Shown here in pieces: positions 11,129 to 43,705 of a stretch of DNA of 64,000 nt (position 1 is its first letter; every line of letters starts with the position of its first letter). Origin of the DNA: an uncultured virus (IMG/VR IMGVR_UViG_3300033562_000771). Lineage: Duplodnaviria; Heunggongvirae; Uroviricota; Caudoviricetes. The position numbers and the translations under genes are program-made. The stretch covers positions 62,001 through 126,000 of IMG/VR virus record IMGVR_UViG_3300033562_000771; one strand, given 5' to 3'. The notes beneath the pieces were generated by a model, which was not told the DNA's origin, searched no databases, and saw only the letters and a program-made list of their open reading frames with translations.

Positions 11129-12595
11129 TCAGGTCAAGCTAATAGACTCGATTTCATGCACGAGGGCATTAGGGTCCATTTCGAGGTTCTGCATGGTCTT
11201 CAAAACGGCGTCACTAAAACCCGCCAAAGCGAAAACCTTGCTCTCGGGGAACTGGAGGGTCCCCTGACCCGTCAGATCGAAAGAGAAGATCCGAGGATCC
11301 GCTCCAAATTTCTGCTTGTAAGCCTTATGTGCGGCATGAGGGGTCCCAGCGCAATAAGAACTAACCTGACGAGTTACCCAAGCTTGCATGTCCGAAAGGA
11401 TGATAATTCGGTCATAGACCTTATTAGCAGTTTCGAAGATACTGTGGAAATCGGTCCCACCCCCGGAAGCGCGGTGAATCTTCTCGGTGAGCGTGGTAAG
11501 ACTATCCGCTGGGTGGAGGTCCAGGTAGGTAGCGCCCGAAGCAAAACGCAGAACGTCTGCATCGTTAGACTTAAACAGCACAGCCGCAAACAACGCAGCA
11601 ATCTGAACGGGGCGACCAGCCATAGATCCACTGGTATCAACAGCAATCAGGGTCTTACCTGAAAACTTGGGAACATTGACAAGGCTCAACTCCATCGCCT
11701 TTTCCAGAGCCAGCTTAACCTCACGGGTATCAGCCTTAGTGCCACGAATTGCTTCGGTAGCAGTATAAATCTGGAAGGGGAACATCAGGGACTTCTTAAC
11801 CTGATGAGGGTCCGTAATGAACTCCAGAGCCAAAGGCATTACATCAGGAGCCTGTTCCGCAATGTTGCGAAGATTGCGGATGCAAGCCATGAAGCCCAGC
11901 TTGTTAGCAGTCAAAAGCTCACGCCATGCCTGACCCTTCATTTCGGCCTTCTCGGTATCCGAAGATGCCTTCTGACCAGCCTGAGTAAGCTTGGTCTCCC
12001 AAGTTTCGGCTGGCTTAAGAGTCCCGGTCATCAGCTCGGTCAATGCAGCAGTAGCCTTAGGGTGCAGCAAATTGACCGCATCATACAGATTCAGATCCTT
12101 ACCCTCTCCACGATACTTGGCAAGCTGATAAGAATCAAACTTACCGAGAGCCGCGCCGAAACCCTTCTTCATAGCGTTGCTCAACTTACGGAGGTTCTGA
12201 CCACTCGTGGACTTGATATATGCAAGAGTCTCGGTGATGTCATCAGGACGATTGACAACCCGCTCGTAGAACTTACGAGTCCACTCCAAGCCCTTGATAT
12301 CCACACGCTGAGAGAGTTCCCCGGCCACAATGTGGCTTACAGACCGGAGGCCATTCTTCTTACGAGTAAAGATAGCTGCCTTTGCTGCAAACAAAGGGTC
12401 AACAGTCTTGGACAAATCGGCAATGCGACTAACCTGACCCTCACCGGACTTGTAATAAGTATCCGTGGTGAAGCAAGTCAACAGCGCCGAAGCAAACTCA
12501 AGCTTAGGGGACATAGCAAAAGCTTCCCCTCCAGCCAAGTTAACAGTAGTAGGAGTGTTAACAGTAGAGACTTCCGTCTTAGCGAAACGAGCCAT
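11129..12595 (-). CDS. rsr: Ro60/TROVE-domain RNA-binding protein (Rsr)
   Basis: VNLAGGEAF, FDSYQLAKY, TWET and RNLRNI motifs; vWA DTSGSM...GGGTD...IILSDMQ. Confidence 0.93.
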   Translation of the reverse strand: MARFAKTEVSTVNTPTTVNLAGGEAFAMSPKLEFASALLTCFTTDTYYKSGEGQVSRIADLSKTVDPLFAAKAAIFTRKKNGLRSVSHIVAGELSQRVDIKGLEWTRKFYERVVNRPDDITETLAYIKSTSGQNLRKLSNAMKKGFGAALGKFDSYQLAKYRGEGKDLNLYDAVNLLHPKATAALTELMTGTLKPAETWETKLTQAGQKASSDTEKAEMKGQAWRELLTANKLGFMACIRNLRNIAEQAPDVMPLALEFITDPHQVKKSLMFPFQIYTATEAIRGTKADTREVKLALEKAMELSLVNVPKFSGKTLIAVDTSGSMAGRPVQIAALFAAVLFKSNDADVLRFASGATYLDLHPADSLTTLTEKIHRASGGGTDFHSIFETANKVYDRIIILSDMQAWVTRQVSSYCAGTPHAAHKAYKQKFGADPRIFSFDLTGQGTLQFPESKVFALAGFSDAVLKTMQNLEMDPNALVHEIESISLT

Positions 12596-14484: not shown

Positions 14485-14558
14485 TGGAGCGGGTGAAGGG
14501 ATTTGAACCCTCGACTTCCAGCTTGGAAGCTAGCACTCTACCACTGAGTTACACCCGC
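14485..14558 (-). tRNA. trnG: tRNA-Gly(TCC)-like with 6-nt anticodon loop
   Basis: Body identical to 37899..37973; arm ctagc TTCCAA gctgg. Confidence 0.7.
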
Positions 14559-15729: not shown

Positions 15730-15804
15730 TGGAGCCGTAGGAGGGATTTGAACCCCCGACAACTGGTTTACAAAACCAGGGCTCTACCCCTGAGCTACTA
15801 CGGC
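15730..15804 (-). tRNA. trnT: tRNA-Thr(TGT)
   Basis: ctggt TT TGT AA accag; CCA. Confidence 0.9.
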
Positions 15805-15904: not shown

Positions 15905-15932
15905 GTTTCAATCCACTCCCTTTACGGGAGAC
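15905..15932 (-). repeat. Solitary type I-C-like CRISPR repeat unit
   Basis: GTCTCCCGTAAAGGGAGTGGATTGAAAC. Confidence 0.55.
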
Positions 15933-16116: not shown

Positions 16117-16492
16117 TGGTGGAGGTGATCGGAATCGAACCGATGTCCAAGAAGCCTCTAAAGGTAATTCATTCACAGGTTTAGCCCATTTTTCGTGACC
16201 TCTATAGGGAGTTGGGCTAACCCTATTCAAGGACTTGCTCTCTACGCTCTTAACTCAGGCTAGGAAAGCGTCACCGGAGTCCAGTCTGTTATCCCCCATC
16301 AGTAGGACGAATCCACCCTCTGAAGAACATACAACTTAGTTACCAAACGCTCACTAAGAGGTTGCTGCTTACGCAGCCTGAAGAAGCATTGTGTCTTCGG
16401 CAGTTATAGCTTTTGGGCTTATTAAAGGGGCCAGCCCACCCCTACCTGCACTACTCTTCAAATAAACAACCTGTCAAAACCATGGCACCCCC
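16117..16492 (-). ncRNA. ssrA: tmRNA
   Basis: 5' GGGGGTG...TTGAC and 3' GGTTCGATTCC..CACCTCCACCA with G3.U70; tag ORF AEDTMLLQAA* at 16369..16401. Confidence 0.93.
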
Positions 16493-17569: not shown

Positions 17570-18112
17570 TCAGTCTGCGTATGTTTTTTCAAACATATCA
17601 AAATCAACCAACTTATGGAAGCGCTCCATGAGAACCATGGTGGGGGTGGTAGGCCTACGGAGTAAGGTCATACCGCTTTCTTCCAGAAGCTTGCTGCCCT
17701 TCATCTGGTTGCATCGGAAACAACAAGCCACGAGGTTTTTCCAGTTAGTTTGACCGCCCTTACTTCGTGGGACAATGTGGTCCACGGTGCAGTTGGTACC
17801 CTTTAGCTTAGCCCCACAATAGCAACACCTATGACCGTCACGACGAATAATCGCCTTTAGGCCCTTGTTGCCTGAGTGCAAACGGGGCTCTCCGGGAGAC
17901 TTGGAAACCATCTTATAGATAATCATCTTAATAGGTTGTCCAGGCTCAATCCAAGAAGAAGTCTCCAGCGTCTTAGGATTAGTGATGATGTCAGCCTTAC
18001 GAGTGACGATGGCCTTGATTGCTTTTCTGCGTGAAATTTCAGCCATTGGGATGAAATGACACGATAAAGCTAAAACCGTGTTTCTGTTCTGAAATCTTTT
18101 TGAGTGTCCCAT
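17570..18112 (-). CDS. HNH endonuclease
   Basis: RDGHRCCYCG...TVDHIVPRSKGG.T.W.NLV.CC.RCN..KG. Confidence 0.9.
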   Translation of the reverse strand: MGHSKRFQNRNTVLALSCHFIPMAEISRRKAIKAIVTRKADIITNPKTLETSSWIEPGQPIKMIIYKMVSKSPGEPRLHSGNKGLKAIIRRDGHRCCYCGAKLKGTNCTVDHIVPRSKGGQTNWKNLVACCFRCNQMKGSKLLEESGMTLLRRPTTPTMVLMERFHKLVDFDMFEKTYAD

Positions 18113-18454: not shown

Positions 18455-18756
18455 TGGTGCGCCCACCCGGACTCGAACCGGGACGCCCTTACGGGCATTG
18501 GATTTTCATCACACTCCATATTGCTATGGCCAGTTTCCTGTTGTGCGCTGGACTATGCCTTGACCATAGATATTTAGTATCCTTAGGCCCCCACCGTCTA
18601 GTCTCTACACCTTCCTGTCTCCAGGCTTGGCTCGGCGTTGTCCACTTGGGGTATTCACCGAATTTGATGGGATTCACATCAGCAGTTTCCTACTAAGTGC
18701 TCTACATGTAATACTTACGTGAAGTCCAAGGCGTCTACCGATTCCGCCATGAGCGC
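18455..18756 (-). tRNA. trnL: tRNA-Leu(TAA) interrupted by a group I intron
   Basis: Exons 18722..18756 and 18455..18506 join to ttgga CT T|AA AA tccaa. Confidence 0.9.
18507..18721 (-). ncRNA. Group I intron (215 nt, no ORF, IC3-like)
   Basis: Inserted after U34 and ends in G; core AAATTCGGTGAA...GCCGAGCCAAGC...GTGTAGAGACTAGACGG...AAGGCATAGTCC. Confidence 0.9.
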
Positions 18757-24410: not shown

Positions 24411-25556
24411 TCACATCCCTAACGCTGAAGAAACTGTTTTAAGCATCAAAGCAGGAATTTCGGACGGTGGGACCTCTTGGAGCTTTAGATTTTGAAGAGC
24501 AGCCACCGCTTTCTTAAGGGAGGTTTGGCTTGAAGTATCCCCATTAATCTCTAAAAGTCTGTAAATACTATCAAATGGGAGCCTTCCTTGACGCCCACCT
24601 TTATACACCATCAAGAAATCTTTAGGGGAGGTAAAAGAGCAGGCGTGGATATTACGCCACAGCGCCATTTCCCGATCCCATGCAAGAGAAAGCCGTTTAC
24701 AAAAAGTCTTTACGTCACCATTAGATTGCATTGTCTGGGCTAATAGGCAATACATCTCAATTAAGCTAACTGATTTTGCAGACTTATTTACCAAATTAAT
24801 TAACGCTGGGAGATTTGACTCCAACTCTGGGAACCAATAACTCATGCAATCAGCTTGATGTAGTACCTGAAAGAAGTTCCCTGGTTTTGCTGCCCTGAGA
24901 GATTTTTCTAGCTCAATTCGAATCCTATCCAATGCTAAAGAAGGCAACTCACCCTGGAGACTATTCATTAATTTGATAGTCTCGGGGTCCACTTTCCAAT
25001 CACCTGGGAGTTGTGCTGAAAATCTAGCTGCTCTCAATACACGAAGAGGGTCTTCCGCAAAAGCTTCCGTGACATGCCTAAGAGTATTAGTCTGCACATC
25101 ATCCATAGCCCTATCATCAAAAGATACAAGTCCTGCAGTAGGGTTCCAGGCGAGAGCATTTATAGTTAGATCGCGTCTAGCTAGGTCCTCTTTAACATCT
25201 GAAACGACCTCAAAATCAAAACCCTTATACCCAATCCCTGTTTTTGTCTCTTTACGGGCATAGGCGAATTCAATAATGCCTAACTCTGGGTCCTCAGTAT
25301 CATATAGATATACAGGAAAGGCGGCTCCGACTTGCTTCACGGGGAGGATCTTTTCAAGCTCTTGCGGGGAGGGAGCCACAACCATAACATCAAAGTCTTT
25401 AGGCGTTCTACCAAGAAGCGCATCACGGATGCAGCCCCCAACGAGATAAAACTCACCAAAAGAATTCAGCTTACGAAGTAAGGTAATTAATTGAGGAGGA
25501 AACTTAGAGGATATCTCCGGGGTTGTAGCTCTTAACAATCGTGAAACCTTTAGCAT
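24411..25556 (-). CDS. cca: CCA-adding tRNA nucleotidyltransferase with MLKVS leader
   Basis: YLVGGCIRD.LLG..PKDFD, EDLARRDLTINA, EDPLRVLRAARF; likely start MLKVSRLLRA at 25556. Confidence 0.9.
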   Translation of the reverse strand: MLKVSRLLRATTPEISSKFPPQLITLLRKLNSFGEFYLVGGCIRDALLGRTPKDFDVMVVAPSPQELEKILPVKQVGAAFPVYLYDTEDPELGIIEFAYARKETKTGIGYKGFDFEVVSDVKEDLARRDLTINALAWNPTAGLVSFDDRAMDDVQTNTLRHVTEAFAEDPLRVLRAARFSAQLPGDWKVDPETIKLMNSLQGELPSLALDRIRIELEKSLRAAKPGNFFQVLHQADCMSYWFPELESNLPALINLVNKSAKSVSLIEMYCLLAQTMQSNGDVKTFCKRLSLAWDREMALWRNIHACSFTSPKDFLMVYKGGRQGRLPFDSIYRLLEINGDTSSQTSLKKAVAALQNLKLQEVPPSEIPALMLKTVSSALGM

Positions 25557-25751
25557 GAGTATAATATCCTCTTCTACCCTAAAAAGAAATCTAAGCACCC
25601 CAATAGGGCTGAGAGATTCTCTTAAAAAATCCATTGGGGAAAACGTCTCCCCAAACCCTTTTACGAAAATGTTTAATAAACATCCCCCCACAACGGTGTG
25701 GGCCGGGAGTGCTAAATCTATCGCGTCTACACCGCAAACACATATAGCGTT

Positions 25752-27029: not shown

Positions 27030-27690
27030 TTAGTCCCAGAAGCCATTTAACCACTTATCCAGGTTCCATTTCTGCCCCGTCCGGTGATCCGTTACAGTGT
27101 TATCACGCACTCGATAAGTCTTGACCTTATCCCCACGCTGGCCCGAACCGACTTGATCTCGTCTGTGCTTACTTAAGGCTTGATGCTGGGAAGCAGCATG
27201 AGCGGCCTCTAAACGAGTTGCAAGGACTTCTAACGCCACCTTCTTATTATGAAGTTGGGAGCGCCCGTCAATTCTTACAGAGAGTCCTGTGGGCCTATGT
27301 ATAGCCAAGACACAGGATTCTACTTTATTCCTGTTTTGACCGCCAGGGCCTGATCCTCGGGTGGTTTGAATCTCCACATCGTTGGGATTGAGGTAGACTG
27401 AGGAATGCTGTAATGCTAAAACAGCAACGGTAACAGTTGAAGTATGAACGCGCTTATTTTTGTCAGTTGGACTAATATGTTGCCACCGTTGACCACCAGC
27501 TTCATTAAAGAATTCTTGGGATGGATCTTCTTTTACCAAGAAGGACACAAAACCCGAAGTTTCCTCTAGAATCTCGGTCTCAAAGTCCCCTCCGCTCAGC
27601 CCTCCGAAGATAGGCCTTTAATTGGTCTCGAACCAATAAAACAGCATCATCGCCGCCTTCTGCGGCACGTATTTCTACAATAATATCCAT
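27030..27690 (-). CDS. Short class I peptide release factor homolog (about 219 aa) expressed via +1 frameshift
   Basis: MDIIVEIRAAEGGDDA... (36 codons) then CGG AGG GGA CTT TGA G; +1 frame gives NEAGGQRWQHISPTDKNKRVHTS and GSGPGGQNRNK. Confidence 0.85.
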
Positions 27691-41404: not shown

Positions 41405-41499
41405 TGGAGGCGGGGGCTGGATTTGAACCAGCGACAGGGTTTGTGACCCTTTTTCGAGTTTATGAGACTCATGAGGACTCCAGGCTCCTCTACCCCGCT
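41405..41499 (-). tRNA. trnM: Initiator-like tRNA(CAT) with long variable arm, copy 1
   Basis: 1:72 mismatch; tgagt CT CAT AA actcg; V arm agggt-cacaa-accct. Confidence 0.75.
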
Positions 41500-41580
41500 A
41501 TTGTTTTGAATTTCCGAGCGGGGAGGGAGTGCATGCCCTCGTTACCCCGACCTCTCCATGAGGCCAGCCCGAATTTATTA

Positions 41581-41918
41581 TAGGTGAACCATAAGCGGGA
41601 TTCTGTCGTGTGACATCATTCCTCTGGGACCAGCATCACTGTTGGCCTCTAGCAGCAACCCGAAGACTACCCGAGCAGGGTCATCATCCTCTGTTTGCCT
41701 TGCTCCACAAGGGGTTTACCATGCCTGTCCTGTTACCAGTCCAGCGGTGGGCTCTTACTCCACCCTTTCACCCTTACCTGATCCCTTTCGGGCCATCGGC
41801 GGTTTGCTTTCTGTTGCACTTTCCGTCAGGTTGCCCTGCCCAGTAGTTAGCTGGCTTGTTGCTCTGTGGAGTCCCGACTTTCCTCTGGTGGTTAGCCAGC
41901 GATGTCCAGGTTTACCTA
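41581..41918 (-). ncRNA. rnpB: RNase P RNA (type A-like)
   Basis: GAGGAAAGTCGGG...AGTGCAACAGAAAGCAAACCGCC...GGTAAACCCC...ACAGAATCCCGCTTA; P1 TAGGTAAACC/GGTTCACCTA. Confidence 0.95.
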
Positions 41919-41923
41919 AAAAT

Positions 41924-41999
41924 TGGTGGACCGCATCGGGATCGAACCGACATTCTCCGCCGTGCAAGGGCAGCGATTTCCCATTAAATCTTCCGGCCC
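41924..41999 (-). tRNA. trnA: tRNA-Ala(TGC)
   Basis: ctgcc CT TGC AC ggcgg; G3.U70. Confidence 0.82.
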
Positions 42000-42030
42000 A
42001 TTTCAATCCACTCCCAGTTTAGTGGGAGAC
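42000..42030 (-). repeat. Solitary type I-C-like CRISPR repeat unit abutting tRNA-Ala
   Basis: GTCTCCCACTAAACTGGGAGTGGATTGAAAT. Confidence 0.55.
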
Positions 42031-42050
42031 ATACAAGATACAGAAAAACT

Positions 42051-42123
42051 TTCTCAAGAGAAAAGTGGATCGCGTGTTTTTTGCACCAAAAGCGAAGTAA
42101 CGCTACTCCTAGCTACTTGAGAA
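42051..42123 (-). ncRNA. Short Y-RNA-like RNA
   Basis: TCTCAAGTAGCTAGGAGTAGCGTTACTTCGC TTTTGGT GC...CGCGATCC...TCTCTTGAGA. Confidence 0.65.
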
Positions 42124-42128
42124 AAGAT

Positions 42129-42309
42129 TGGCTCCCACTCTCGGACTTACTGCCAGACCACTAGGCGTCCCAGGAATGGTCATGATTGGCGAACTGGGAG
42201 AATTACGATATCTCGACATCAACCTTAACAGGGTTGCGCTCTTCCTCTGAGCTACCAGTCCTTAGTTTCTTAAACCAGTCATTCGCTTTAACCACTGAGC
42301 TAAGCGGGA
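42129..42309 (-). pseudogene. Outer degenerate tRNA-Asn-like gene interrupted by an inner tRNA
   Basis: TCCCGCT/AGTGGGA-G-CCA acceptor, D arm and ATGA/TCAT anticodon stem flank the inner gene. Confidence 0.55.
42187..42261 (-). tRNA. trnN: tRNA-Asn(GTT), atypical T loop
   Basis: caacc CT GTT AA ggttg; G73. Confidence 0.78.
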
Positions 42310-43610: not shown

Positions 43611-43705
43611 TGGAAGCGGGGGCTGGATTTGAACCAGCGACAGGGTTTGTGACCCTTTTTCGAGTTTATGAGACTCATGAGGACTCCAGGCTCCTCTACC
43701 CCGCG
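43611..43705 (-). tRNA. trnM: Initiator-like tRNA(CAT) with long variable arm, copy 2
   Basis: Near-identical to 41405..41499; C1xU72. Confidence 0.75.

Follow-up and report, generated by a model that had tools for sequence, protein, structure and literature searches.

Three intact look-alikes of type I-C CRISPR repeats and a truncated fourth copy are present in a phage genome in which searches over the full 278,785 bp found neither cas genes nor a CRISPR array. One of the intact copies ends exactly at the 5′ boundary of a tRNA-Ala gene, which is followed at once by a gene for RNase P RNA (rnpB). The repeat pattern is beyond chance, and the unit looks to have been kept. We regard it as about an even call that the three intact units are Racr-like RNA decoys against a type I-C system of the host, expressed on tRNA transcripts.

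Genome context and candidate host

The window, i.e., the whole stretch of 64,000 nucleotides that was analysed, belongs to an IMG/VR record classed as viral (G000, 128,938 bp), which is 99.995% identical to part of a longer IMG/VR record (G001, 278,785 bp; CheckV completeness 95%) representing the source phage genome of about 279 kb. The sequencing runs containing the phage DNA are microbial-mat metagenomes, and none of those listed is a dependable RNA library; a second mat sample yielded a contig identical to positions 41686-42121 (0 differences). A 205-nt contig that matches 41964-42167, also with 0 differences, and spans copy 1 of the repeat unit comes from a library labelled as RNA-Seq and annotated as "probably DNA"; the library type is doubtful, and the contig gives neither a transcript nor an end nor a strand.

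The phage genome is about 90% coding, with 243 of the 259 called ORFs on one strand, and the window is an island of RNA genes, containing 44 tRNA genes and a tmRNA gene, all placed on the minus strand by ARAGORN. G001 was searched over its full length for copies of the repeat and for cas genes. No Cas family was recognised in any of the 271 ORFs that reach 80 aa, a six-frame search of the phage genome for Cas5d gave no match, and no CRISPR array was detected in the window or in the rest of the 278,785-bp genome; what the first-pass annotation had said of the window, that it holds no cas genes and no array, extends to the genome as a whole. Since cas genes were not found in a phage genome that is 95% complete, any Cas partner of the units must be the host's. 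No known acr/aca or other informative families were recognised beside the repeat units. No sister phage was found: searches with a 183-aa ORF of the neighbourhood and with a 26-nt anchor from tRNA-Ala matched only this phage, and a tail-fibre-like protein yielded distant partial matches only.

Two loci of the phage have a host-like appearance, namely a TonB-dependent receptor gene (G001, L195:7951-9828) and a trio of genes encoding a YfiR-like protein, a CHASE8 kinase and a response regulator (L204:5762-8089). The best named homologues of the TonB-dependent receptor and of the CHASE8 histidine kinase are from Acidobacteriota (35-47% identity), where they are found in Holophagaceae, Geothrix, Acanthopleuribacter and Sulfidibacter. 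An acidobacterial MAG (L081) contains a 159-repeat array with the frame of the phage unit, and the Cas5 family PF09704 scored above the cut-off in 53 of 401 sampled genomes of the phylum to which this MAG belongs. The similarities weakly suggest Acidobacteriota as the host, as a lead and not as an assignment. A comparison of 1405 spacers from the sampled arrays with the 129-kb record gave best matches of 15-20 nt, at the level of noise, and no arrays bearing the stems of copies 1-3 were present among the viral, genome and metagenome matches listed.

The unit at the tRNA-Ala gene

Copy 1 is a type I-C-like repeat unit of 31 nt (GTCTCCCACTAAACTGGGAGTGGATTGAAAT; 42000..42030, minus strand), composed of a 5′ GU, a 6-bp stem (CUCCCA/UGGGAG), the loop CUAAAC and an 11-nt tail, UGGAUUGAAAU. 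With up to three mismatches allowed, the 31-mer has a single match (0 of 100 shuffles). The unit ends at position −1 of the tRNA-Ala and makes up the final 31 nt of the 5′ leader, so that the fusion to the 5′ end of tRNA-Ala(TGC) described by the first-pass annotation is borne out by the ARAGORN gene boundaries. This tRNA-Ala(UGC) gene (41924..41999, minus strand) was predicted by ARAGORN and is a weak match in Rfam (29.4 bits at a cut-off of 29); the tRNA has the G3:U70 pair and an encoded CCA, and position 8 is A instead of U. Its CCA is encoded like that of nearly all tRNAs of this phage (43 of 44).

The gene rnpB begins 5 nt past the CCA of tRNA-Ala, as the earlier reading of the sequence had also placed it after the tRNA; it encodes a class A RNase P RNA (41577..41918, minus strand; Rfam, 268.5 bits) that covers model positions 1-367, that is, the full length. 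An RnpA-like protein was not seen among the 271 phage ORFs. An unannotated rnpB-like match is present in the Microcystis phage record MaAM05; a search of 8 other phage records gave no rnpB.

On the upstream side, the nearest same-strand neighbour is tRNA-Asn(GUU) (42187..42261, minus strand; ARAGORN), separated from copy 1 by a spacer of 156 nt (42031..42186, minus strand), in which an AU-rich hairpin is followed by a U run (CUUUUCUCUUGAGAAAGUUUUU) and which includes the heptamer TGTATCT. The likeness of this heptamer (42036-42042) to a −10 box was not upheld, as it falls in no sigma-70-like site in a consensus scan. The same scan showed no sigma-70-like site directly upstream of any of copies 1-3, with the proviso that the phage's own promoters may differ from this consensus. 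Since copy 1 directly abuts the tRNA, a promoter cannot fit between the two, and the unit lies inside the tRNA-Ala precursor unless transcription starts within it.

In the predicted fold, the hairpin of copy 1 and the acceptor stem of the tRNA form independently of each other. The end of the unit also resembles the usual leader ends of this phage; U occupies position −1 in 33 of the 44 phage tRNAs, AAU occupies positions −3 to −1 in 14 of the 44, and copy 1 ends in AAU, copies 2 and 3 in AAC. The spacers within tRNA clusters are 6-7 nt long, e.g., ATACAAT.

Further copies and their common frame

The unit had been described as solitary. The description is right insofar as copy 1 has no adjacent repeat and resides in a cas-less element, but further copies exist in the genome, and one of them is in the window (15905-15932). 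In total, a search of the whole of G001 revealed three intact copies, a truncated fourth and no others. The copies that had been missed make a stronger case for a kept unit and, at the same time, bring in recombination with host arrays as a rival origin.

Copy 2 is an exact match in the handle-motif search (28 nt, GTCTCCCGTAAAGGGAGTGGATTGAAAC; 15905..15932, minus strand) and consists of GU, a 5-bp stem (CUCCC/GGGAG), the loop GUAAA and the tail UGGAUUGAAAC. It is located 184 nt past the tmRNA gene (16117..16492, minus strand; ARAGORN and Rfam) and 100 nt ahead of tRNA-Thr(UGU) (15730..15804, minus strand; ARAGORN). Copy 3 (36 nt, GTCTCACCACCTAAACAGTGGTGAGTGGATTGAAAC), revealed by a motif search of G000, lies outside the window (L001:2589-2624, minus strand), 57 nt before the GGAGG-GTG start of a 105-aa ORF; directly 3′ of it there is an (AAAC)5 microsatellite, likewise outside the window (L001:2567-2588, minus strand). 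The fourth copy, at the start of an ORF outside the window, is a fragment (GTGATGAGTGGATTGAAAA) that lacks the 5′ arm and the hairpin and has 17 of 18 bases in common with the 3′ arm and handle of copy 3. No paralogous ORFs were found in the flanks of copy 3 and the fourth copy.

The three intact copies are all intergenic and are spaced 26 kb and 51 kb apart. They have 18 identical flanking bases, and the stems and loops differ; the stems of copies 1, 2 and 3 are 6, 5 and 8 bp long and the loops 6, 5 and 7 nt, each followed by the 11-nt single-stranded tail UGGAUUGAAAY. All 19 pairs of the three stems are intact (19/19), and the energies of the hairpins alone range from −8.4 to −12.1 kcal/mol. 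The 13-mer GAGTGGATTGAAA occurs four times in the genome, every time on the transcribed strand, compared with 0 of 60 first-order Markov simulations.

Relationship to type I-C repeats

Canonical I-C repeats contain a 7-bp stem flanked by 2-nt and 11-nt overhangs, and Cas5c is described as reading U22-G23-G24, the base of the stem and the 3′ overhang, and not the loop (PMC8524198). All three intact copies have this I-C anatomy, with a 2-nt overhang, a stem-loop and an 11-nt 3′ tail led by UGG, the tract after the stem that corresponds to the Cas5c target; the features in common with the canonical repeats of that paper are the 2-nt overhang, the closing pairs, the UGG and the 11-nt tail ending in AUUGAAAY. 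The phage units differ from canonical repeats in lying outside arrays and, for copies 1 and 2, in being shorter (31 and 28 nt versus 32-37 nt).

Searches with the pattern GTCTC-N(8-18)-GAGTGGATTGAAA, which was built to fit the three phage copies, revealed 73 viral loci, 7 of them arrays with a periodicity of 66-67 bp, and at least 120 genome loci, many of which are arrays. In three of seven loci (L116, L144 and L098), originating from an Anaerolineales MAG, a Myxococcota MAG and Bariatricus, arrays of the form GTCTC...GAGTGGATTGAAAY adjoin genes for Cas3, Cas5d, Csd1 (Cas8c), Cas7, Cas4 and Cas1; of the remaining four array loci, one has a Cas1 fragment and three have no cas gene among the ORFs examined. 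Judged by sequence, the phage copies are look-alikes of type I-C repeats with the same frame as these cas-adjoining arrays, and the assignment to an I-C-like repeat made in the first-pass annotation stands.

Among 46 ungapped 33-nt array repeats, helix columns 3-10/15-22 are paired in 97.8% of cases, and five of the eight helix pairs change on both sides; the observed values were reached in 0 of 500 shuffles. The 54 distinct array repeats are all 32-37 nt long, and the stems of 53 reach 7 bp or more; copy 1 (31 nt, 6-bp stem) and copy 2 (28 nt, 5-bp stem) fall below the size range of the arrays, and copy 3 (36 nt, 8 bp) falls within it. Of 71 distinct solitary units whose stems have 4 bp or more, 31 measure 31 nt or less and 33 have a stem of 4-6 bp; the three phage copies are counted here, and the search pattern dictated where the units end. 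The shortened stems of copies 1 and 2 could weaken the binding of Cas5c.

Proposed expression and action

Solitary repeat units (SRUs) have been shown to act as Racrs that sequester Cas proteins, and RacrIC1 inhibits type I-C in a dose-dependent manner (PMC10651486). The phage units have no neighbouring repeat, are intergenic and belong to a cas-less viral record, as SRUs do. In smaller viral contigs, many of the solitary units are preceded at about 6 nt by a TATAAT-like box and followed by a terminator, the arrangement typical of a Racr gene; in the phage, tRNA transcripts would stand in for the units' own promoter and terminator.

We infer that the units are transcribed, released by RNase P and bound by Cas5c/Cas7, and that immunity is thereby inhibited. 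In the maturation of the tRNA 5′ end, RNase P cuts at the last base of the leader. Any transcript that yields tRNA-Ala would carry copy 1, barring a start inside the unit, and RNase P, either the host's or an enzyme built on the phage rnpB, would cut exactly at the boundary between the repeat and its "spacer". The product would be a repeat RNA that lacks a spacer and retains the hairpin, the 11-nt handle and the UGG context of the cut site; it could be bound or cut by host Cas5c, which could not assemble it into a functional Cascade. The idea of a crRNA mimic released by RNase P, raised in the first-pass annotation, appears sound, since the unit is the 5′ leader of a tRNA. The other two intact copies, of which copy 2 precedes tRNA-Thr by 100 nt and copy 3 belongs to the 5′ UTR of a small ORF, may act likewise with longer 3′ extensions.

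The tRNA operons are plausibly highly expressed. A broader proposal, which we put forward tentatively and consider rather doubtful, is that phage tRNA operons form a production line for CRISPR decoys, where the tRNA serves as a handle, RNase P trims the repeat RNA to an exact end and the output is tied to that of the tRNA. The same junction would then be contested by RNase P and Cas5c, and the presence of several stem variants in one genome would trap a wider range of host Cas5c proteins.

Alternative origins and functions

The units might instead be scars of recombination, in which a crossover between a host spacer and a phage protospacer brought in the repeat and replaced the PAM flank, leaving an uncuttable site and relics devoid of RNA function; this is, in our judgement, an unlikely alternative to decoys. 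Varble et al. are said to have described, in 2019, recombination between phages and CRISPR loci at spacers. A crossover of this kind would leave a repeat ending exactly at native phage sequence, as at the tRNA-Ala gene, and the hairpin-less fourth copy, in which only the 3′ portion of a repeat resembling copy 3 is left, is what an exchange within the repeat could produce and suggests that the units arose by capture. Such an origin is compatible with a later use as decoys. As a complete account, recombination leaves the maintained pairing of three different stems, perfect throughout, unexplained; it also has to accommodate ends that are identical across the copies while the middles differ, the sense orientation of all four copies, and a site exactly at tRNA +1, which is one among many positions. 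Moreover, copies 1 and 2 are shorter than all 54 array repeats, so that neither is a fresh copy of one of the repeats sampled.

Perhaps the repeat together with the RNA downstream of it works as a guide of the Cracr type, loading the host Cascade and directing it to the promoter of cas genes or of a CRISPR-guarding toxin, which would be repressed, or to competing phages; we find this improbable. Viral single-repeat units that consist of a repeat, a spacer-like sequence and a terminator are known, predicted I-C representatives included, and multiplexed viral units aim at different variants of a system (bioRxiv 10.1101/2024.10.29.618823); with this precedent, the non-tRNA sequences past copies 2 and 3 (100 nt and 57 nt) could be taken for guides. 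Nevertheless, the 50 nt past each copy, when compared with 1.27 Mb of sampled I-C loci and with the phage, gave best matches of 13-14 nt (exact) or 17/18, none above noise, although the sample does not contain the true host locus and is a weak test for downstream "spacer" matches. The first 22 nt after copy 2 occur, among viral contigs, in this phage only. The "spacer" of copy 1 would be a structured tRNA that RNase P would remove, and copy 3 is followed by (AAAC)5.

The first-pass annotation had also suggested a role for host Cas5d in processing or regulating the tRNA transcript, and adjacency was the one observation in favour of this. In such a scheme, cleavage by host Cas5c at the units would separate or tune a polycistronic transcript of tRNA, tmRNA and rnpB, and two of the three copies are indeed in tRNA leaders; yet the remaining 42 tRNAs, with their short AU-rich spacers, need nothing beyond RNase P and the usual 3′ nucleases, copy 3 is away from any tRNA, and reliance on a defence protein that is absent from many hosts would be fragile, all of which makes this function very improbable. 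That the likeness arose by chance, or that the units are hairpins of some general kind (a terminator, for example, or a regulatory site of the phage), is next to negligible as an explanation; the hairpins are modest in energy and the Rfam CRISPR-DR models stay below threshold (CRISPR-DR9, 12.6 and 16.6 bits versus a cut-off of 45, in a collection without a model for the exact repeat class), but the fourfold 13-mer absent from the simulations, the frame identical to that of arrays adjoining I-C cas genes and a tail that is exact in both length (11 nt) and sequence (PMC8524198) argue against it.

Comparison with known systems

Solitary I-C repeats in phages are already known. With RacrIC1 and other Racrs (Camara-Wilpert et al. 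2023, PMC10651486), the units share the character of a lone, intergenic I-C mimic in a cas-less phage and the proposed action, competition for Cas proteins, which here is deduced from sequence. Compared with the Racrs as described in that paper, promoters of their own were not found for the phage units in the consensus scan, two of them reside in the leaders of tRNAs, one of these directly abutting tRNA +1 beside rnpB; this phage also carries three copies with different stems, two of them shortened, and no acr gene was recognised nearby. In the main text and the supplementary text searched of PMC10651486, the word "tRNA" is absent, and the record number of the phage does not appear in the SRU table as given in the searched supplement text.

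The Cracr/crlRNA units (bioRxiv 10.1101/2024.10.29.618823) resemble the phage copies in being single phage repeat-like units followed by non-repeat sequence, and several units per element can address variants of one CRISPR type. Set against the Cracr units described there, the phage copies have no match to cas promoters in the sampled loci and no evident terminator, and copy 1 is followed by a tRNA. Relative to the published Racr and Cracr descriptions, as far as their searched text extends, what is apparently new is that units sit in tRNA leaders, that one of them is joined directly to tRNA +1 next to rnpB and that a single cas-less genome has three stem variants.

In engineered tRNA-gRNA arrays and in bacterial sponge RNAs derived from tRNA spacers, the 5′ cut of RNase P at a tRNA defines the end of the adjoining RNA. 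The difference from these systems of tRNA-linked RNA release is that the passenger in the phage would be a natural, putative decoy of Cas proteins.

RNA anti-CRISPRs are known as small genes with promoters of their own. If repeats in tRNA leaders are decoys, searches that require a promoter or mask tRNAs would miss the whole class, and the tRNA arrays of large phages, and even their RNase P RNA, would have a second reason for being there, as a platform for counter-defence RNA; several stem variants would give cover against diverse Cas5c proteins of hosts. If tRNA operons do produce decoys in the manner of a production line, they would parallel in nature the engineered processing of guide RNAs from tRNA fusions and add a new mode of expression for RNA anti-CRISPRs of large phages. 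If the units are scars instead, they would record past CRISPR attacks on the phage and the route of its escape.

Lone units in other phages

Stem-diverse units are also found in other large phage records, four in G002 and five in G003. Each of these two records contains a tandem pair of I-C-like units with differing stems (L210 in G002 and L217 in G003), with 17 nt between the members of one pair and about 70 nt in the other; neither has the spacing of an array. The 149-kb phage G006 has a sense unit 102 nt upstream of a tRNA, inside a tRNA cluster, and two further loci have tRNAs nearby. A direct fusion of an I-C handle to a tRNA was also sought elsewhere; in 3 of 61 viral loci (L232, L257 and L272, the latter two identical to each other) a tRNA lies within 5 nt of the handle, none of them with a hairpin, and by estimate the three adjacencies are consistent with chance.

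Other features of the genome

The phage encodes several RNA ligases, an RNase T-like exonuclease and a Ro60/TROVE protein (11129-12595, minus strand). About 2 kb from the Ro60/TROVE gene, ARAGORN reports a "tRNA-???" gene with a 2-base anticodon (14485-14558, minus strand), which could be a Y-RNA-like partner of Ro. Located among the tRNA genes are those for a CCA-adding-enzyme-like protein with a PolyA_pol head domain (24411-25691, minus strand) and for an RF-1-domain (ArfB-like) protein (27030-27548, minus strand), which, together with the tmRNA, make up a set for translation rescue and repair.

A group I intron match (18527-18720, minus strand; 51.2 bits versus a cut-off of 50) is adjoined by an HNH endonuclease ORF (17570-18112, minus strand). 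Inteins are present as well; a 1097-aa protein contains an intein and LAGLIDADG domains (G001, L205:425-3718), and an RNA ligase carries an intein (G001, L207:2378-3487). Two tRNA-Met(CAT) genes (41405-41499 and 43611-43705, minus strand), 96% identical to each other, are unusually long, at 95 nt each.
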